Positions 61-19,561 of a DNA stretch of 64,000 nucleotides are shown here, piece by piece. The stretch comes from Escherichia phage EO1: sequence record OQ223305.1; one strand, given 5' to 3'. Under the pieces are notes generated by a model. That model did not search any database. It was not told where the DNA came from and saw only the letters and a program-made list of their open reading frames with translations. The position numbers and the translations under genes are program-made. Every line of letters starts with the position of its first letter. The stretch's first letter is position 1.

Positions 61-125
61 AGTTGTTTACAAGACTGTTCCTCTGTGGTACTATACAACT
101 ATCAACTACGGAGGAACAGAAAATG
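61..125 (+). repeat. 65-bp promoter cassette, copy 1 (copy 2 at 52673-52737)
   Basis: 60 of 65 positions identical between the copies; all 5 differences lie in one 8-bp block of the -10 region. Confidence 0.8.
65..96 (+). promoter_or_regulatory. early promoter cassette (-35 GTTTAC, -10 region GGTACTATAC) flanked by inverted repeat
   Basis: GTTTAC at 65-70; -10 region 87-96; inverted repeat CTGTTCCTC (75-83) / GAGGAACAG (111-119) brackets it. Confidence 0.65.
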
Positions 126-650
126 AACGCTAAAGATATTTTCAACTTGGTAAACTACAATGATGGTAAATTTAAATCTGAAGCACAAAGTAAGTTCTTT
201 AATGACATCTCAATCGGAGGTGAAATCACTGTTGATGGAGGACAAATTTACAAATCCCGTTGGAATTGGATCGTTATTATTGATGAGATTGGTATTGTAG
301 AAATTTACAAAAATACGAATAAAAATCGTACATTACACTGGTCTCGTGATACTAACGAACAGTACAAAAAGGATAAAGCATCTAAGTTATCTCGTGTAAC
401 TCAAGAAGATATTGAGTTCATCAAGAAAGATATTTTGATGTATGATAACTTAATTGCTGAAGAGCAAGCTGTTATTGATAAATTTGATGAGATTAAAGCT
501 TCTCATAAAATTCCTGATTTTATGAAAGAATCAGTAAATGAACGATACACTCTCATTTCAGAGCGTATTGAAACTTACAAAAAGCAAAGAGCTGAACGCC
601 AGAATACTCTTCGGAAGTTTGAAGAACGGTTAAAGACGGTACTCGCATAA
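123..650 (+). CDS. hypothetical early protein, helical/coiled C-terminus (175 aa)
   Basis: ATG 123 lies 6 nt after GGAGG and just downstream of an early promoter; the six-frame ORF 63-650 N-terminal extension is read-through of the promoter. No recognisable domain. Confidence 0.55.
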   Translation: MNAKDIFNLVNYNDGKFKSEAQSKFFNDISIGGEITVDGGQIYKSRWNWIVIIDEIGIVEIYKNTNKNRTLHWSRDTNEQYKKDKASKLSRVTQEDIEFIKKDILMYDNLIAEEQAVIDKFDEIKASHKIPDFMKESVNERYTLISERIETYKKQRAERQNTLRKFEERLKTVLA

Positions 651-705: not shown

Positions 706-1113
706 ATGAAACAGCTGATAATTAAAAGATTGAATTTATTGATATGTTGTTTATGTATAGTAATTGCATATGGTTATTACGCAATTAATGATTATATGCA
801 TTATAAAGATTATGATGTTACTGTAGTTAATACCCTTACAGGAACTCAAGGAAAGGGGTCTAGTTTATCGTTTATTGCCGTATATGAACTCAAAGACGGT
901 TATAGATTTAGCGAATATATTTCCCCAGAGATGTATTCATCAATAGAAAAAGGCGATAATATTACTGTAAGTTTACGTCCTTTCGACGTAAAACAGACAC
1001 TGTTTGATAATATTGTTTGGTTCTTTGGAATGGTATTAGTTCAATCTGTGTGTGGTGCTTATATAGTCTGTTCCATCTTATTCTGTATATTTAGTAAAAT
1101 TGAAATTGAGTGA
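706..1113 (+). CDS. hypothetical small membrane protein (135 aa)
   Basis: ORF with hydrophobic N- and C-terminal segments (LLICCLCIVIAYGYY; FFGMVLVQSVCGAYIVCSILFCIF); preceded by a TATAAT-like -10 at 671-676. Confidence 0.5.
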   Translation: MKQLIIKRLNLLICCLCIVIAYGYYAINDYMHYKDYDVTVVNTLTGTQGKGSSLSFIAVYELKDGYRFSEYISPEMYSSIEKGDNITVSLRPFDVKQTLFDNIVWFFGMVLVQSVCGAYIVCSILFCIFSKIEIE

Positions 1114-1120
1114 GGAAAAT

Positions 1121-2008
1121 ATGTCAGTAGTAATTAATAATGTCAATGCAGTAATTAAATCTTTAGTTAATAAAAAATTGAATGAATGGACTGTACTTCG
1201 TCGTGGAGAGCCAGATAAATTTTTTCATAGATTTAACCCAACTTTGGATTTGAATGTTATTGACAGAGATGTTCATACAGAAATTTTAGATAAATTTAAA
1301 GTTGATATTGGATTTGGATTAGAAAAACATTTACAGCGAACAAACGGGTCTGGAATGGGTTTATCTAATCGCATCATGAAAGCCCTTAATAAAATTGGAG
1401 CATTGTCTCGTATTAACGCGAGTGAAATCCTTCGTAATTATAATAAAGGATATGACCTTTATGGCCGACTAATGCCGAAATTGTCATTCGATCAAATGAT
1501 TGCGGATTTGTGGGAAAATCAACGACGATTATTAGCATTAGGCGCTAGATTAGCTAAAGGTCTAGATAAACAAATGATTTTTAAAACTAATAATACAGAA
1601 GACCTTAAATGCTTTAAATTTAGTACTCGTGGAGATGACTATTACATCAGAGCTCACTCTACAGATTATGTCAATATGGGGCATCATCTCTGTTTAGCTT
1701 TTGAAGTTTTAAAAGAAGCCGGAACATTAGAATATTCATCTGGGGCAAAATGCCCGATTGGTTCAAATTGTATTTTAATTTATCGCCCGAATGAATCCAG
1801 TTCAACTAAATTGCCTACAAAACCTGTACCAGTTCGTAGTAACGAAAAACATTCTGAGCAAATTGATTATTTTAATAAGCAAATTGAAGAACTGAATATT
1901 TCTATTCAACAATATGACGATGAAATCTTTAGACTATCTGGATTGAGTAGTAAAGCTAAATCTGAGCGTGAAAAGTTAATTAAAATTGTTGATTTACTTA
2001 AATCTTAA
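1121..2008 (+). CDS. hypothetical protein, member 1 of coiled-coil-tailed ORF array (295 aa)
   Basis: ATG 1121 follows GAGGAA; C-terminal ~45 aa are heptad-like (IEELNISIQQYDDEIFRL...EREKLIKIVDLLKS). Confidence 0.6.
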   Translation: MSVVINNVNAVIKSLVNKKLNEWTVLRRGEPDKFFHRFNPTLDLNVIDRDVHTEILDKFKVDIGFGLEKHLQRTNGSGMGLSNRIMKALNKIGALSRINASEILRNYNKGYDLYGRLMPKLSFDQMIADLWENQRRLLALGARLAKGLDKQMIFKTNNTEDLKCFKFSTRGDDYYIRAHSTDYVNMGHHLCLAFEVLKEAGTLEYSSGAKCPIGSNCILIYRPNESSSTKLPTKPVPVRSNEKHSEQIDYFNKQIEELNISIQQYDDEIFRLSGLSSKAKSEREKLIKIVDLLKS

Positions 2009-2016
2009 GGAATACC

Positions 2017-3036
2017 ATGAAAACTCGTTCTCAAATTGAAGATATGGTTCGTAATGCCAGCTATACCCGTAATGTTATGACATTTTTGTGCCAAAATAAT
2101 TTAGACCCTGATAGAGTTAATAGTTCCATTCACTTTAAGTATATGAATAGCAGTGAATGGTTACGTCATTTTAGTAAAGCGGGATATATTACACAAATGA
2201 CTGCTCGTGAGCAGCTCACCGATTTCTGTAAAACTATTGATTATAAAAATCCTCTATTTGTTCAAGGCGTTGGTCAGAGTAAGGTTGATTTATCAACAGG
2301 ATTTTTTAATCCAAATCATTATCGTATTGAATGGAGATTTATTGCTCTATTCCGTAAACAATTAAAGCAAATTTTGTCTACTGCTAGTCGATTAAAAGGT
2401 TCTGACATTAACTTAAAGAACCTGAAATTCGATGGTTATACTCTTCAGATGGAAGTAAGACCATTAAAAGAAAATAATAGAACTGCACGAATTAGCTTTA
2501 AACCTAATACAAAAAATTCTCTTTCAATTTGTGAATGCCTTAAATCACAGTTGACAGAAGCATTTAAGTATATGGATGTTGTTGCCGCTGTTCATTCTAA
2601 GATTTTACCTCATTTTGAGCGAAATTGGGAACATACAACAACGTATGAACTTGATATGATCGTTTCATTTAAATACGATTTTTTGAGAAAGGATGAAGTC
2701 CCGCAAGAGAAAAAGCAGGAAGTACAAGATAACTTAAATTTATCTAATTGCTCATCAAACTATCCTAAATTTTGGATGTATAGCTCAGGTAATGAGGATG
2801 CATGGAAATTCAATAAAGTGAATTTTCTTCCTGTTGAAAATCCGAGTCTTAAACCTGTTGAAAAATGGCACGCGGATGCGATTGAGAAGTCTCTTAAGGC
2901 AGTAGATGATGAACTCGTTAAAGCGACCAATGAAGTGCTAGAAGCTGAAAAGATGCTAGAAAAAGCACAAGAAAAAGTCAAAAATCTTACGAAGCAACGT
3001 TCTAAACTGAACAGTGCACTAAATGCACTGAACTAG
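2017..3036 (+). CDS. hypothetical protein, member 2 of coiled-coil-tailed ORF array (339 aa)
   Basis: ATG 2017 follows TAAGGA; C-terminus LVKATNEVLEAEKMLEKAQEKVKNLTKQRSKLNSALNALN is strongly heptad/charged. Confidence 0.6.
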   Translation: MKTRSQIEDMVRNASYTRNVMTFLCQNNLDPDRVNSSIHFKYMNSSEWLRHFSKAGYITQMTAREQLTDFCKTIDYKNPLFVQGVGQSKVDLSTGFFNPNHYRIEWRFIALFRKQLKQILSTASRLKGSDINLKNLKFDGYTLQMEVRPLKENNRTARISFKPNTKNSLSICECLKSQLTEAFKYMDVVAAVHSKILPHFERNWEHTTTYELDMIVSFKYDFLRKDEVPQEKKQEVQDNLNLSNCSSNYPKFWMYSSGNEDAWKFNKVNFLPVENPSLKPVEKWHADAIEKSLKAVDDELVKATNEVLEAEKMLEKAQEKVKNLTKQRSKLNSALNALN

Positions 3037-3065
3037 TTTACTTTGCCACAAGGATGTGGTATAAT
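3036..3065 (+). promoter_or_regulatory. early promoter cassette (GTTTAC, CCACAAGGATGTGG hairpin, TATAAT)
   Basis: GTTTAC 3036-3041, inverted repeat CCACA/TGTGG 3046-3059, TATAAT 3060-3065; 18-bp spacer; drives ORF at 3094. Confidence 0.65.
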
Positions 3066-3093
3066 GTTCTTACTTTCTACTGAGGAGATTAAT

Positions 3094-4095
3094 ATGACTC
3101 GTAACGAATATATCAAATCATTCAATAGAGTTATTGATGATAAAGTTAAACCCATGTCTAGTCAGAACGCTGTTCTTTCTATTATCAATCAATGGCTCAG
3201 CAGTATTGATGCAAGTATTGTTTCTTCCAGTAAATTTATTCATGAAGTTCGTGAAATTTCTAGCCGTGTAGATAAAGATGATATTAAGATAATCTTTAAA
3301 GGGTCTCGTCTTCTTTCATATTTAGTTAATCGGGATATTCTTGGTAATTTTGGGAAAGAAATTAAACGAACCAAAGATGTAATAGGATACAATTGGTTCG
3401 GTGATGTTAATTCTTATCATCTTAATAATAAAGAAGACCCTGAGAATATTTTTACTCGTCGTTGGATTAGTAATTTCAGACTTTTTAAAGGACAAATTCT
3501 AAAATCAGCTTCTAAATTATGTTATGGCGATTATCGTCAAATTCATCCTTTGGCTTCTGATATGATTATCGTAAAAGAATATGAGCTTGATAAAAATAAA
3601 GTAGCTATTTTTGTGAATTACGAATTTTTTACACCAAACGCTAACCAAAAGAATATTAATAAATTTTTCTCAATTGCTAGCACTATAACTCATCAATTAG
3701 AGACGGCTTTGGATTGTATGGAAACTGTAAAAAGTATTCATACTTATCCTTTTAAGAATATGTGTGGTTGGGAAGGATACAAAATTGTAGTTAGTCTTCG
3801 TGAAGTGAAATGTGCTTATTCACCTACTGATAAAGAAATTTATCAACAAAAATGTGAGGAAATTGTGAATACTCCTAAAGAAGAAACTACCCTTGAGGAA
3901 CTAATGGAATGTCTTGATGATTCACCTGAACCGGTAGAAATTCGTCCAGAAGTTATTGCATTAGAAAAAGCTTATAAAGAAGTTCTAGAAATTTCTAATA
4001 AAGCGCAGAAAGAATACGAGCAGGCTAAAAAGATTTGGGAAGAATCTGTCAATCGCTTGGATCGTCTTGAACAAGCTTTACAGTTAATTAAGTAA
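3094..4095 (+). CDS. hypothetical protein, member 3 of coiled-coil-tailed ORF array (333 aa)
   Basis: ATG 3094 follows GAGGAG and its own promoter cassette (3036-3065); the six-frame start at 3043 is a TTG inside the promoter. C-terminal coiled coil (EKAYKEVLEISNKAQKEYEQAKKIWEESVNRLDRLEQALQLIK). Confidence 0.6.
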   Translation: MTRNEYIKSFNRVIDDKVKPMSSQNAVLSIINQWLSSIDASIVSSSKFIHEVREISSRVDKDDIKIIFKGSRLLSYLVNRDILGNFGKEIKRTKDVIGYNWFGDVNSYHLNNKEDPENIFTRRWISNFRLFKGQILKSASKLCYGDYRQIHPLASDMIIVKEYELDKNKVAIFVNYEFFTPNANQKNINKFFSIASTITHQLETALDCMETVKSIHTYPFKNMCGWEGYKIVVSLREVKCAYSPTDKEIYQQKCEEIVNTPKEETTLEELMECLDDSPEPVEIRPEVIALEKAYKEVLEISNKAQKEYEQAKKIWEESVNRLDRLEQALQLIK

Positions 4096-4147
4096 TTTAA
4101 AGCCAAGGATGGCTCGGAGCATAAATCATTAACCAAGTGAGAAGAAC

Positions 4148-5074
4148 ATGAAAACTCGTAAACATTATATTGATTATTTTGACAGTCTTATTACTAAACA
4201 TCGTAATTATCAGATAGGACACAGAGCAGTAATCAATAATATTCTTCGTGATTTTTTAGACTATATTGGATGGGAAAACCATATTTGTAAAGATACACAA
4301 AATGCGTATTCACATTCTCTTGGTTCTTTGCTCGAGTGGTTCAAACGTTCCCGATTACTATCTTCTGTGATAGCTGTTAATAATGTTAAAAAATTTATGT
4401 ATCCAAGCTACATTAAGACTAATGTATCAAATGCTAGTGTTGTTACATTTAATATTATTAACGACGTGAAAAGAACTTATTTAGAAGAATGGTTTTCTAA
4501 AGATAGTAAAGAAAAATTTGCCAGTGAATTTTCACACGAATTCAATAATAACGTGAATATGCTTTTTAAGCATTCTCGTAGACTGTTTTGTCATGGTGAT
4601 AATCGTACTATTAATGTGAATGTAAAAGACTGGGTTACGGCTAAATTCACTCCATCGTCCCAGAATGGACAATTTGATTTGTCAATTATCATTTGTGCTC
4701 CGCATGAGATATATAAAAATCTTCCGTATATGAAACCACGCGAAGCTAATAAACACAATGAAACTATTAGTTCTTTGTCTTATAATTTGCATGAGTTATT
4801 ATCTAATATGGATGTAGTTAAATCATTTGATGATAATACGAATTATGGTCTTTCACTGTTTGAAACTAAATTTGTTATTAAGTTAAAGGACCCTAGTGAA
4901 TTTAAATCTGCACCAAAACCTAATCATGGGAATGATACTATGAAAGAAGAACGTGAATATCTCAATGCCCGTTTGATTGAAGTTGAAAAACAAATTGAAG
5001 AGCATACTAAAGTTCTTAAGGCTTTAACCGCCAAAGCAAATGGTTTACGTAATGCTATTGAGGTATTGAAATGA
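4148..5074 (+). CDS. hypothetical protein, member 4 of coiled-coil-tailed ORF array (308 aa)
   Basis: ATG 4148; C-terminus [42 protein letters not shown]; stop overlaps next ATG (ATGA). Confidence 0.6.
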   Translation: MKTRKHYIDYFDSLITKHRNYQIGHRAVINNILRDFLDYIGWENHICKDTQNAYSHSLGSLLEWFKRSRLLSSVIAVNNVKKFMYPSYIKTNVSNASVVTFNIINDVKRTYLEEWFSKDSKEKFASEFSHEFNNNVNMLFKHSRRLFCHGDNRTINVNVKDWVTAKFTPSSQNGQFDLSIIICAPHEIYKNLPYMKPREANKHNETISSLSYNLHELLSNMDVVKSFDDNTNYGLSLFETKFVIKLKDPSEFKSAPKPNHGNDTMKEEREYLNARLIEVEKQIEEHTKVLKALTAKANGLRNAIEVLK

Positions 5075-5460
5075 AAAAGCGTTTATTAGAAGACATTGCA
5101 GCTTCAAGTAATTCCAGTCTAATTAAAATTATTATGGCTGGTGAAGAAGACGATTTGGAAATGCGTGGAAAGATTCACGGCTGCGACGATTTAGATTTTA
5201 AACCTCCAGCATGGGATGCTATTATGGCTATGGTTGAACGGCGTGAAAGAGCTTCTAAAAACGTTCCTAATTGCCCTGAATGCGGTACTGAACAAGTTCA
5301 ATTGATTAACTGGCGTAAACCAGAGCTTGAATATAAATGCCGTCAATGTAAACATAAATTCAGTAAGCATGCTCCGGAAATGGTTAAATTGCCTGACTCT
5401 ACTGAGTTCTTTAAAGAACTTGTGAGTGTTCAACCAATGCCTAATAATATTTTGGATTAA
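5071..5460 (+). CDS. hypothetical zinc-ribbon protein (129 aa)
   Basis: Paired Cys motifs CPECG...CRQC typical of a zinc ribbon; translationally coupled to the upstream ORF. Confidence 0.5.
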
Positions 5461-5462
5461 AA

Positions 5463-5705
5463 ATGACCAAGCGTAAAGAATATATGGAGGCTGCTGAAAA
5501 GGCAGTCCGTGAATTAGCAATAGCTTATTATAATGAACATGGTAAATTTCCTGATAGATACAGCGTGCTTAAATCTGCTTTAACTCGTTCATATAAAAAT
5601 ATGCTATCAGAAGTAAGTGATATTATATACAAACATAAAGAACAAACGGGCCAAAGTCTTGATTACGACGAGACTTTTAAACAAGTACTAGGAATTAAGG
5701 AATAA
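5463..5705 (+). CDS. hypothetical protein (80 aa)
   Basis: ORF immediately upstream of nrdC, typical T4-like tight packing. Confidence 0.45.
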
Positions 5706-5706
5706 T

Positions 5707-5970
5707 ATGTTTAAAGTATATGGTTATGATAGCAACATCCATAAATGTGTGTATTGTGATAATGCAAAACGTCTTTTGACCGTGAAGAAACAGCCGTTTG
5801 AATTTATCAACATTATGCCGGAAAAAGGTGTTTTTGATGATGAGAAAATCGCTGAGCTTCTGACTAAACTAGGTCGTGATACTCAAATCGGCTTGACAAT
5901 GCCCCAGGTATTTGCTCCTGATGGAAGTCATATTGGTGGATTTGACCAACTGCGAGAATATTTTAAATGA
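5707..5970 (+). CDS. nrdC: phage thioredoxin/glutaredoxin NrdC (87 aa)
   Basis: N-terminus MFKVYGYDSNIHKCVYCDNAKRLL with CVYC redox motif matches T4 NrdC as recalled; 87 aa as in T4. Confidence 0.85.
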   Translation: MFKVYGYDSNIHKCVYCDNAKRLLTVKKQPFEFINIMPEKGVFDDEKIAELLTKLGRDTQIGLTMPQVFAPDGSHIGGFDQLREYFK

Positions 5971-6686: not shown

Positions 6687-6809
6687 AACCTTGGTGGGCG
6701 GCTAGATGGGAAACTGTAGAGCCAGAGCTGGAAGAACCGGTTTACACTGATGAAGAAACAGTATATAATGAACCAACGATAAATGACTTAATTGATATGG
6801 AGATGGGAC

Positions 6810-17882: not shown

Positions 17883-19561
17883 AGAATTTTAAACTTAATA
17901 GAGTAAAATATAAAAATATAATGTCAGTTGGTCAAAATGGGATTGACATTCAATTAGATAAGGTTCAAAAAACTCTTATTACTGGACGAAATGGCGGTGG
18001 TAAGTCTACTATGCTAGAAGCCATCACATTTGGGCTTTTTGGCAAGCCATTTCGTGATGTAAAGAAAGGTCAATTAATAAACAGCACAAATAAGAAAGAA
18101 CTTTTAGTTGAACTGTGGATGGAATATGATGAGAAAAAGTACTATATCAAAAGAGGACAAAAACCGAACGTTTTCGAAATCACCGTTAACGGTACACGTC
18201 TTAATGAATCTGCCAGCAGTAAAGATTTCCAAGCAGAATTTGAACAGCTTATCGGAATGTCATATGCCAGTTTCAAGCAGATTGTTGTCCTTGGTACAGC
18301 AGGGTATACCCCTTTCATGGGTTTGTCGACCCCTGCGCGAAGAAAGCTTGTGGAAGACCTGCTCGAGGTAGGAACATTAGCTGAAATGGATAAGCTTAAT
18401 AAAGCACTAATACGTGAATTAAATTCACAAAACCAAGTGCTTGATGTTAAAAAAGATAGTATTATCCAACAAATTAAAATATATAATGATAACGTTGAAC
18501 GCCAGAAAAAATTAACGGGTGACAACCTTACTCGTCTTCAAAATATGTATGATGATTTGGCAAAAGAAGCTAGAACGCTAAAATCGGAAATAGAAGAAGC
18601 TAATGAAAGATTAGTTAATATTGTTTTAGACGAAGACCCGACTGATGCATTTAATAAAATCGGCCAAGAAGCAGTTTTAATTAAATCAAAAATTGACTCG
18701 TATAATAAAGTCATTAATATGTATCACGAAGGTGGATTATGTCCAACCTGTTTGTCACAATTAAGTTCTGGTGATAAAGTTGTTTCTAAAATTAAAGATA
18801 AAGTTTCTGAATGCACGCATTCGTTTGAACAGCTTTCAACACATCGTGATAATTTAAAAGTTCTTGTTGATGAATACCGAGATAATATTAAAACCCAGCA
18901 GTCGCTGGCAAATGATATTCGCAATAAAAAGCAATCTCTAATCACGACGGTAGATAAAGCTAAAAAGGTTAAAGCGGCTATAGAAAAAGCATCTTCTGAG
19001 TTTATTGACCATGCTGATGAAATAGCATTGCTTCAAGAAGAACTTGATAAAATTGTTAAGACAAAAACTAATTTAGTAATGGAAAAATACCACCGAGGAA
19101 TTTTGACTGATATGCTCAAAGATTCTGGTATTAAAGGTGCTATTATTAAAAAGTACATTCCATTATTTAATAAGCAGATTAACCATTATCTTAAAATAAT
19201 GGAAGCGGATTATGTGTTTACATTAGATGAAGAATTTAATGAGACAATTAAATCCCGTGGTCGTGAAGATTTTAGTTATGCTTCATTTAGTGAAGGTGAA
19301 AAAGCAAGAATTGATATTGCTCTTTTATTTACTTGGCGTGATATTGCTTCTATTGTATCTGGTGTTAGTATTAGTACATTAATACTCGATGAAGTGTTTG
19401 ATGGGTCATTTGATGCCGAAGGTATTAAAGGTGTAGCTAATATTATAAATTCAATGAAAAACACTAATGTTTTTATAATTTCGCATAAAGACCATGACCC
19501 GCAAGAATACGGTCAGCATCTTCAAATGAAGAAAGTTGGTCGATTTACTGTAATGGTTTAA
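17879..19561 (+). CDS. 46: recombination endonuclease subunit gp46 (Rad50/SbcC-like ATPase), 560 aa
   Basis: 560 aa; Walker A GRNGGGKST, central coiled coil with CPTC zinc hook, C-terminal signature/Walker B; GTG start as in T4. Confidence 0.85.
   Translation: MKNFKLNRVKYKNIMSVGQNGIDIQLDKVQKTLITGRNGGGKSTMLEAITFGLFGKPFRDVKKGQLINSTNKKELLVELWMEYDEKKYYIKRGQKPNVFEITVNGTRLNESASSKDFQAEFEQLIGMSYASFKQIVVLGTAGYTPFMGLSTPARRKLVEDLLEVGTLAEMDKLNKALIRELNSQNQVLDVKKDSIIQQIKIYNDNVERQKKLTGDNLTRLQNMYDDLAKEARTLKSEIEEANERLVNIVLDEDPTDAFNKIGQEAVLIKSKIDSYNKVINMYHEGGLCPTCLSQLSSGDKVVSKIKDKVSECTHSFEQLSTHRDNLKVLVDEYRDNIKTQQSLANDIRNKKQSLITTVDKAKKVKAAIEKASSEFIDHADEIALLQEELDKIVKTKTNLVMEKYHRGILTDMLKDSGIKGAIIKKYIPLFNKQINHYLKIMEADYVFTLDEEFNETIKSRGREDFSYASFSEGEKARIDIALLFTWRDIASIVSGVSISTLILDEVFDGSFDAEGIKGVANIINSMKNTNVFIISHKDHDPQEYGQHLQMKKVGRFTVMV

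Follow-up and report, generated by a model that had tools for sequence, protein, structure and literature searches.

Gene content of the array and its internal promoter

The 64,000-nucleotide stretch of Escherichia phage EO1 analysed here (sequence record OQ223305.1; the window, in its entirety) carries a tandem array of four accessory genes, and we describe the homology, the predicted architecture and the candidate counter-defence function of their products. The first 6 kb of the window showed 97.6% nucleotide identity to sequenced Tequatrovirus genomes and matched 705 phage records; judged by its sequence, the source genome is that of a Tequatrovirus (T4-like) phage. Gene names were taken from the annotated records of phages RB51 and T4, and the region is an accessory island of the T4-like type, nrdC.8-nrdC.1, situated upstream of nrdC. 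An earlier note, made from the letters alone, had described four consecutive open reading frames (ORFs) of similar length that end in coiled-coil tails, and had proposed comparing them with the T4 nrdC.x genes. The comparison identified them as the orthologues of nrdC.6, nrdC.5, nrdC.4 and nrdC.3, which encode 295, 339, 333 and 308 residues, respectively.

All four genes lie on the plus strand and have an ATG start and a Shine-Dalgarno sequence. The nrdC.6 orthologue (1121-2008; phrog_2257, PF26899) carries its tail at residues 245-295, encoded by nucleotides 1853-2005. It is followed by the nrdC.5 orthologue (2017-3036; DUF7235/PF23882, phrog_2351), with the tail at residues 283-339 (nucleotides 2863-3033). 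This ORF is the orthologue of T4 NrdC.5, which it matches in sequence (90.9% identity by tblastn, 90% by local alignment) and in its genomic position between nrdC.6 and nrdC.4. The nrdC.4 orthologue (3094-4095; phrog_1435, PF26897) has its tail at residues 289-333 (nucleotides 3958-4092), and the nrdC.3 orthologue (4148-5074; phrog_1435), which is of the T4-type allele, at residues 263-308 (nucleotides 4934-5071). The ATG at 3094 is the sensible start for nrdC.4, with 333 residues, and a second candidate ATG at 3064 falls within the -10 element of a promoter.

This T4 early-type promoter (3036-3065, plus strand) stands upstream of nrdC.4, reads GTTTAC-N17-TGGTATAAT, and is the best extended -10 match of the region. 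The earlier note had seen it as a cassette inserted in the middle of the array; the promoter is indeed present, but its insertion was not borne out. It was retained with 0-1 mismatches in 12 of 12 Tequatrovirus loci, T4 and LYE-01 among them, and in LYE-01, which does not carry nrdC.4, it stands before nrdC.3. As the promoter is conserved in every Tequatrovirus locus examined, it is a resident feature rather than a recent insertion. The spacer holds a palindrome, CCACAAGGATGTGG (3044-3061), which was flagged in the scan as a terminator-like hairpin followed by T-rich sequence, and the palindrome-bearing element may be a terminator and a promoter at once. A second palindrome, CAGTGCACTAAATGCACTG, is located at 3012-3030, at the extreme end of nrdC.5. 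Another match to the early-promoter pattern, GTTTAC-N18-TATAAT, was observed at 6740-6769, within the 49.1/pin region.

Homology and predicted architecture of the array proteins

The earlier note had considered the N-terminal bodies of the four proteins largely dissimilar. This is true at the pairwise level, since BLASTP comparisons among the four array ORFs returned nothing significant (best E 0.02); however, profile comparison revealed homologous bodies. Family alignments composed of database homologues and ORFs from related loci were compared profile to profile with HHalign, after removal of the last 55 residues, which form the tails. The tail-free comparison aligned nrdC.4 with nrdC.3 over 210 columns (probability 97.7%, E 1.6e-12) and nrdC.5 with nrdC.4 over 145 columns (probability 84%, E 8e-6), which contradicts the idea of a common tail on unrelated bodies. 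Both nrdC.4 (E 1e-166) and nrdC.3 (E 2.5e-100) were also assigned to the same PHROG family, phrog_1435. A first nrdC.5-nrdC.3 score (E 7e-29) was an artefact: both alignments contained a chimeric protein, P0120. Once this was taken out, the direct comparison was not significant (E 0.06-0.1), and nrdC.5 therefore joins nrdC.3 only via nrdC.4. The products of nrdC.8, nrdC.10 and nrdC.11, checked by HHalign as further paralogues and serving also as negative controls, showed no link to the array families (probability under 2%, E above 0.05).

The divergence within the family is considerable. The bodies of nrdC.3, nrdC.4 and nrdC.6 share less than 25% identity with NrdC.5, and the tails compared on their own showed weak similarity between paralogues (best E 9e-4). 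The Pfam DUF7235 model (PF23882), with a gathering score of 30 bits, matched the nrdC.5 ORF along residues 1-339 (408.9 bits, E 2e-122), gave 13.5 bits for nrdC.3 in the tail only, and did not match nrdC.4 or nrdC.6. On this profile evidence, we assign nrdC.3, nrdC.4 and nrdC.5 with high confidence as paralogues that have diverged over their whole length.

The nrdC.6 protein is the most divergent of the four paralogues. Against an enlarged profile of nrdC.3, nrdC.4 and nrdC.5 it reached E 4e-4 with a probability of 35%, and the alignment took in the N-terminal helical domain and a common helix-pair motif of the form '...RL..G.D..', which reads NQRRLLALGARLAKGxDKQ in nrdC.6 and ILKxASKLxxGDxR in nrdC.3/4/5. 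A bridging family, phrog_26858, was found through gp085 of Enterobacter phage IME523 (335 residues), a single-copy relative encoded upstream of nrdC, which was matched by both the nrdC.3/4/5 and the nrdC.6 hidden Markov models. Among the PHROG models, gp085 matched those of nrdC.6 (phrog_2257; E 7e-6, residues 148-333) and of nrdC.5 (phrog_2351), and P0236, another member of phrog_26858, matched phrog_1435 over its full length (E 2e-9). A common tail on an unrelated body is not supported for nrdC.6 either, as it joins the others through the bridging family and a matching predicted topology. We hold with moderate confidence that nrdC.6 belongs with the others and that all four array genes are paralogues. 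A further nrdC.6 homologue, from Shigella phage Sf25 (P0122; 378 residues, 98% identity), bears an N-terminal extension of ~80 residues, which may have arisen by fusion to the nrdC.7 frame upstream or from faulty annotation.

The heptad score was the occupancy of the a and d positions in 42-residue windows, with Ala and the aromatic residues included, and its background was taken from real proteins, namely the 57 ORFs of at least 120 residues in the 64-kb window (mean 3.9, standard deviation 2.5). The tails scored 10 in nrdC.4 and nrdC.5, 8 in nrdC.3 and nrdC.8, and 7 in nrdC.6; in each of these proteins the highest-scoring window was the C-terminal tail, and shuffling gave p <= 0.003 for each tail. 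The five tails thus rank with the highest-scoring heptad windows of the 57 ORFs. These values confirmed the heptad-like tail that had been noticed on all four ORFs, together with the similar helical C-terminus of the ORF at 123-650, which is nrdC.8. The sole ORF above 8 besides nrdC.4 and nrdC.5 was a 546-residue ORF at 17921 on the plus strand (score 9, window DNVERQKKLTGDNLTRLQNMYDDLAKEARTLKSEIEEANERL); its size and position make the Rad50-like gp46 its probable identity, and it was therefore used as a positive control for a coiled coil. The nrdC.10 and nrdC.11 sequences of phage Bas37 were negative in this scoring. A first version of the score, based on Leu, Ile, Val and Met alone, gave p = 0.007-0.26 and placed the nrdC.4 optimum off the tail; it was too crude and was replaced.

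The tails present unbroken 3-4 hydrophobic spacing over at least five heptads within a predicted helix. By eye, the nrdC.5 tail runs through 15 consecutive a/d positions in this spacing; the nrdC.6 tail, with a Gly/Ser break midway, is predicted as two helices. In every family the tail ranks with the best conserved segments, the a/d positions being somewhat more conserved than b, c and f, and a C-terminal motif, L-x-x-A-[IL]-x-x-[LI]-[KN], is common to nrdC.3, nrdC.4 and nrdC.5.

AlphaFold2 models covered nrdC.5 and nrdC.6, with predicted local distance difference test (pLDDT) values of 70 and 78 (78.4 for nrdC.6). The nrdC.5 model displayed one 56-residue helix (residues 283-338, pLDDT ~80-90) after a 58-residue stretch at pLDDT ~30, while the nrdC.6 model displayed two helices (245-271 and 277-294) preceded by a shorter disordered stretch. 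The order of elements was the same in both: a helical N-domain, a beta-beta-alpha-beta-beta unit, a linker and the C-terminal helix. Both models also matched the same proteins in a Foldseek search of BFVD, E5E4A2 of phage Acj61 and A0A1Z1LY96 of Serratia phage CBH8. The nrdC.6 model additionally matched a 335-residue IME523 protein (E 1.3e-6, template modelling (TM) score 0.50), presumably gp085 from its length and source. The predicted family architecture thus comprises a helical N-domain, a beta-beta-alpha-beta-beta domain, a disordered linker of ~15-60 residues and an amphipathic C-terminal heptad helix. Matches of the nrdC.5 model to tail-terminator and tail-completion proteins (E ~1e-2) were judged to be generic small alpha/beta matches. 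A 175-residue protein of Klebsiella phage KPV15, possibly an nrdC.8 homologue, also matched the nrdC.5 model in BFVD (E 8e-4).

Domain searches gave no sign of enzymatic activity. Pfam and NCBIfam scans of the array proteins detected no enzyme-family and no DNA-binding domain, and the sequence search of the PDB returned nothing; no solved structure resembles the family. The NCBIfam and PADLOC matches were all weak (E > 0.004) and fell on coiled-coil regions or short unrelated stretches; the PADLOC defence and anti-defence models gave no significant match, the nrdC.4 tail reaching E 0.0046 in a coiled-coil-type match to BrxC. The columns conserved across the nrdC.3/4/5 alignment are mostly hydrophobic, and with no enzyme-family matches the array proteins appear, from their sequences, to be without a catalytic signature. 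Many GenBank phage records label nrdC.3-nrdC.6 as 'thioredoxin', and one record labels a neighbour as 'Mur ligase domain-containing protein'. At E <= 1, Pfam and NCBIfam yielded no thioredoxin or glutaredoxin family, and neither a thioredoxin nor a Mur ligase domain is detectable in the window proteins. The 'thioredoxin' label appears to have been propagated from the gene name 'nrdC.x'.

Distribution and variation among T4-like phages

The nrdC.3/4/5 profile, with the tail included, was compared with 1.84 billion representative proteins and found 18 matches at E <= 0.001, which indicates that it does not act as a generic matcher of coiled coils or low-complexity sequence. The longer matches that were traced in the phage collection came from T4-like phages, and a single-protein scan of a viral contig collection gave five close relatives. 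Superfamily members are located upstream of nrdC in T4-like (Straboviridae) genomes, and the family is, as far as these sequence searches indicate, confined to such phages. The copy number varies among them, with one member in IME523, three in Dhakavirus JS10 (nrdC.6, an nrdC.5-like gene and nrdC.4) and four in T4-type phages. In LYE-01 (L014) nrdC.4 is missing, and in ACG-C40 most of the stretch from nrdC.5 through nrdC.3 is deleted. The remnants in ACG-C40 (L017 2501-2716) are a 71-residue nrdC.5 N-terminal ORF and an nrdC.3 tail, apparently out of frame.

Compared with T4, the products of nrdC.3, nrdC.4 and nrdC.5 showed 90% identity, and those of nrdC.8, nrdC.6, nrdC.1, nrdC, pin and gene 49 showed 96-100%; nrdC.3, nrdC.4 and nrdC.5 evolve faster than their neighbours. 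The variation of nrdC.3 within Tequatrovirus is dimorphic: 139 records share at least 90% identity with the allele of the window and 358 records only ~61%, while the genomes carrying either allele are 96-100% identical around the gene. A third class, of ~55% identity, occurs in RB69-type phages. The differences are concentrated at residues ~80-260, and the first 60 and last 50 residues are conserved. The locus L008 7132-8061 is the nrdC.3 locus for comparison with 4148-5074 of the window. Taken together, the picture drawn in the earlier note is supported in that the variable region upstream of nrdC encodes a family of accessory proteins that are expressed early and have diversified.

Two chimeric proteins were observed. 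P0120 (299 residues) joins nrdC.5 residues 145-271 to nrdC.3 residues 134-308, with a short FN..VN microhomology at the join. P0235, a metagenomic protein of 173 residues, combines an unrelated 118-residue N-terminus with a near-identical nrdC.5 tail, DAIEKSIKAVDDELVKATNEVLEAEKMLEKAQEKVKNLTKQRSKLNNALNALN. In the phage collection no record covers 80% of P0235, its N-terminal part having weak partial matches in H66 and H67, and it may be a rearrangement product.

The remaining genes of the island flank the array. Upstream of it are the nrdC.8 orthologue (123-650, plus strand; 175 residues, with a tail at residues 134-175, nucleotides 522-647) and the nrdC.7 orthologue (706-1113, plus strand; 135 residues, phrog_2547), a hydrophobic and probably membrane protein that belongs to the island and stands outside the paralogue family. 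Downstream are nrdC.2 (5071-5460; 129 residues), the start of which overlaps the nrdC.3 stop, the nrdC.1 orthologue (5463-5705, plus strand; 80 residues, 98% identity to T4 NrdC.1) and nrdC (5707-5970), with the 49.x genes, pin, gene 49 and nrdD 3' of nrdC. The nrdC.2 product of the window is a zinc-ribbon protein (CxxC...CxxC; Zn_ribbon_8 at 26.5 bits, under the cut-off), which is the same as that of RB51 and shows 79% identity to T4 nrdC.2 across 77% of its length. In RB51, nrdC.10 and nrdC.9 are separated by a seg-like homing endonuclease gene (L001 1958-2677), which is not present there in Bas37, Bas44 or LYE-01 and therefore points to mobile-element traffic in the nrdC island.

Candidate counter-defence function and alternative explanations

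The earlier note could name no function, a position now outdated for one member, as the T4 orthologue of nrdC.5 counteracts the SIR2-type NADase Dsr1. A T4 clone with deletions fails to plate on the strain ECOR17, and deletion of the host dsr1 gene restores plating (Srikant et al., eLife 2022, PMC9391042). T4 nrdC.5 expressed from a plasmid likewise restores plating on MG1655 carrying dsr1 (PMC9391042). Dsr1 is reported to recognise phage major capsid proteins through its TPR sensor (2026 preprint, PMC12803255). Two flanking genes have been reported as anti-defence genes in a HIDEN-SEQ preprint (10.1101/2025.11.20.689424), T4 nrdC.1 as inhibiting Septu and bas37_0203 as inhibiting Druantia III. 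The latter, from Bas37 (phage KarlGJung), is a 528-bp gene in the nrdC.8 position with 98% identity to the ORF at 123-650; the nrdC.8 body is unlike the array proteins, no sequence homology having been detected, and has a beta-rich N-terminus by eye. The suggestion of the earlier note to express single members against defence systems was therefore apt, given nrdC.5 against Dsr1 and the Bas37 nrdC.8 orthologue against Druantia III. As published, the four array genes are dispensable on laboratory hosts: nrdC.3-nrdC.6 and bas37_0198-0201 are non-essential in T4 and Bas37 transposon libraries (10.1101/2025.11.20.689424), and nrdC.1-6 can be deleted as a block (PMC9825161). The literature searched gave no account of paralogy or of the tails, and no function or phenotype for nrdC.3, nrdC.4 and nrdC.6.

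We propose that the region is probably an anti-defence island containing a paralogue family of binding-type, non-enzymatic inhibitors of host immune proteins. As NrdC.5 has been published as blocking Dsr1, its three paralogues are good candidates against other host defences. A single, flexibly tethered amphipathic heptad helix of 45-56 residues would hardly be stable by itself, which suggests homo-oligomerisation or docking onto a partner, and this in turn makes a family of binding-type inhibitors the best-supported model. The array proteins, expressed from early-type promoters, would be made early in infection. Their globular body would provide target specificity and would have diversified as genes were duplicated and alleles replaced. 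The tail, which is conserved, would form a coiled coil by which the inhibitor oligomerises or is docked onto a partner, and this would raise the avidity for oligomeric defence proteins. NrdC.5 would thereby neutralise Dsr1, and nrdC.3, nrdC.4 and nrdC.6 would neutralise defence proteins other than Dsr1. The analysis shows which genes these are, how they are related and built, their heptad tails and their restriction to T4-like phages, and published work shows that they are dispensable and that the T4 orthologue of nrdC.5 acts against Dsr1; that the proteins bind their targets directly, that the tail oligomerises them and that nrdC.3, nrdC.4 and nrdC.6 counter host defences are steps that we infer. 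The fast evolution of the array genes, the dimorphic nrdC.3 and the variable copy number are typical of an arms race.

Several observations weigh against this proposal. The experimental support concerns nrdC.5 alone, via a T4 orthologue that is 90% identical; no mechanism has been published for NrdC.5, which could inhibit Dsr1 indirectly. Transposon screens have been run against several defence systems, and the main text reporting them did not flag nrdC.3, nrdC.4 or nrdC.6 (10.1101/2025.11.20.689424). The nrdC.6 link is transitive and individually weak, with its HHalign probability of 35%, the Foldseek TM-scores are low (0.17-0.50), and the model confidence is moderate at pLDDT 70 and 78. The e and g positions of the tails show no clear salt-bridge pattern and are uninformative on dimer specificity, and over 40-50 residues a 3.5-residue repeat is indistinguishable from that of an amphipathic helix packing on another surface.

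The proposal can be extended, at a strength that we consider doubtful, to a diversifying counter-defence 'cassette' system. The tail would then be a universal oligomerisation or docking handle on which recognition bodies are swapped by duplication, allelic replacement and recombination between paralogues, each paralogue disarming a different oligomeric immune sensor, and, once a deletion has occurred, the internal promoter would re-arm the gene that follows. Pointers in this direction are the dimorphism of nrdC.3, the chimeras P0120 and P0235, and the conservation of the internal promoter. If true, three inhibitors would await discovery in nrdC.3, nrdC.4 and nrdC.6, and the tail would be a transferable module for engineering new ones.

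Among the rival explanations, nrdC.3, nrdC.4 and nrdC.6 could be host-takeover or metabolic accessory proteins with no part in anti-defence, the effect of nrdC.5 being special or indirect. Many T4 early accessory proteins modulate host physiology, and the silence of the searched literature on phenotypes of the three genes fits such a role. However, the three are homologous to a protein of demonstrated counter-defence activity and are flanked by two other reported anti-defence genes; they also show the rapid dimorphic evolution and copy-number variation typical of arms-race genes, and no enzyme or DNA-binding domain was detected in them by Pfam and NCBIfam, which together make this explanation rather unlikely.

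A modular design, in which an exchangeable coiled-coil tail is the unit of inheritance and is recombined as a common handle onto unrelated effector bodies, appears unlikely. It would account for the near-identical nrdC.5 tail behind the unrelated N-terminus of P0235, for nrdC.8, with its different body and comparable heptad tail, and for the natural nrdC.5/nrdC.3 chimera P0120. Yet the nrdC.3/4/5 bodies are homologous without their tails and nrdC.6 has their topology, the tails by themselves show only weak similarity from one paralogue to another (best E 9e-4), and P0235, less than 80% of which is covered by any phage record, may itself be a product of rearrangement.

That the four paralogues join through their tails into one hetero-oligomeric complex, acting on a single target or process, is improbable despite the adjacency and common orientation of the genes, the internal promoter, the agreement of the tails in length and register, and the C-terminal motif common to nrdC.3, nrdC.4 and nrdC.5. 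The copies vary freely among related phages (1, 3 or 4), with nrdC.4 alone missing in LYE-01, and the nrdC.3 alleles have been swapped independently of the neighbouring genes. Plasmid-borne nrdC.5 by itself also restores the plating of the deletion phage on dsr1+ cells (PMC9391042). Lastly, that there is no real family, the four genes being unrelated and their Lys/Glu-rich helical ends convergent low-complexity sequence, draws on the non-significant pairwise BLASTP and on the three separate Pfam families (PF23882, PF26897, PF26899), but it is extremely improbable in view of the profile-profile comparisons, the PHROG cross-matches, the bridging family, the structure predictions and the mere 18 proteins found by the tail-bearing profile among 1.84 billion representatives, and it is already contradicted for nrdC.3, nrdC.4 and nrdC.5.

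The preferred reading, of a family of binding-type inhibitors, can be compared with known systems. With respect to T4 NrdC.5, the nrdC.3, nrdC.4 and nrdC.6 proteins are diverged paralogues with the same domain order that fall under the DUF7235 threshold. DSAD1 of a Bacillus phage switches off the SIR2-type NADase DSR2 by binding (PMC10981675, PMC10973363). The likeness between DSAD1 and NrdC.5 is a functional analogy, both being phage proteins that counter a sirtuin defence; the array proteins showed no sequence or fold similarity to DSAD1. The T4 internal proteins IPI, IPII and IPIII likewise combine a short common module with diverged bodies, and at least some of them are anti-defence proteins. 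They are packaged and injected, and the module that they share is located at the N-terminus and targets them to the capsid. The array differs in its shared C-terminal coiled coil, its early-type promoters and its homologous bodies. IPI acts against GmrSD and IPIII against an unknown system of ECOR17. The T-even dmd-tifA-adfA 'anti-TA' (anti-toxin-antitoxin) island is similarly a cluster of non-essential early genes, each directed against a different host system, in a region that readily undergoes deletion, amplification and allelic exchange (PMC9391042). Its genes are described as analogous and co-located and not as paralogues, while the array consists of four adjacent paralogues.

The gene array itself has long been known, and the role of one member, nrdC.5, is published. 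The unification of nrdC.3, nrdC.4, nrdC.5 and nrdC.6 with phrog_26858 into one superfamily appears to be new, as does the recognition of a conserved tethered coiled-coil tail in all its members, and together these provide three named counter-defence candidates (nrdC.3, nrdC.4 and nrdC.6). Three Pfam families (PF23882, PF26897, PF26899) and four PHROGs (1435, 2351, 2257, 26858) should accordingly be merged. Most genes of this island are still annotated as 'hypothetical', or wrongly as 'thioredoxin', in T4, the best-studied lytic phage. Should nrdC.3, nrdC.4 and nrdC.6 prove to be diverged copies of NrdC.5, the protein published as acting against Dsr1, there would be concrete candidates among genes so far uncharacterised, and their common architecture, a variable binding body with a tethered coiled coil, could account for the retargeting of a single scaffold to several immune proteins.

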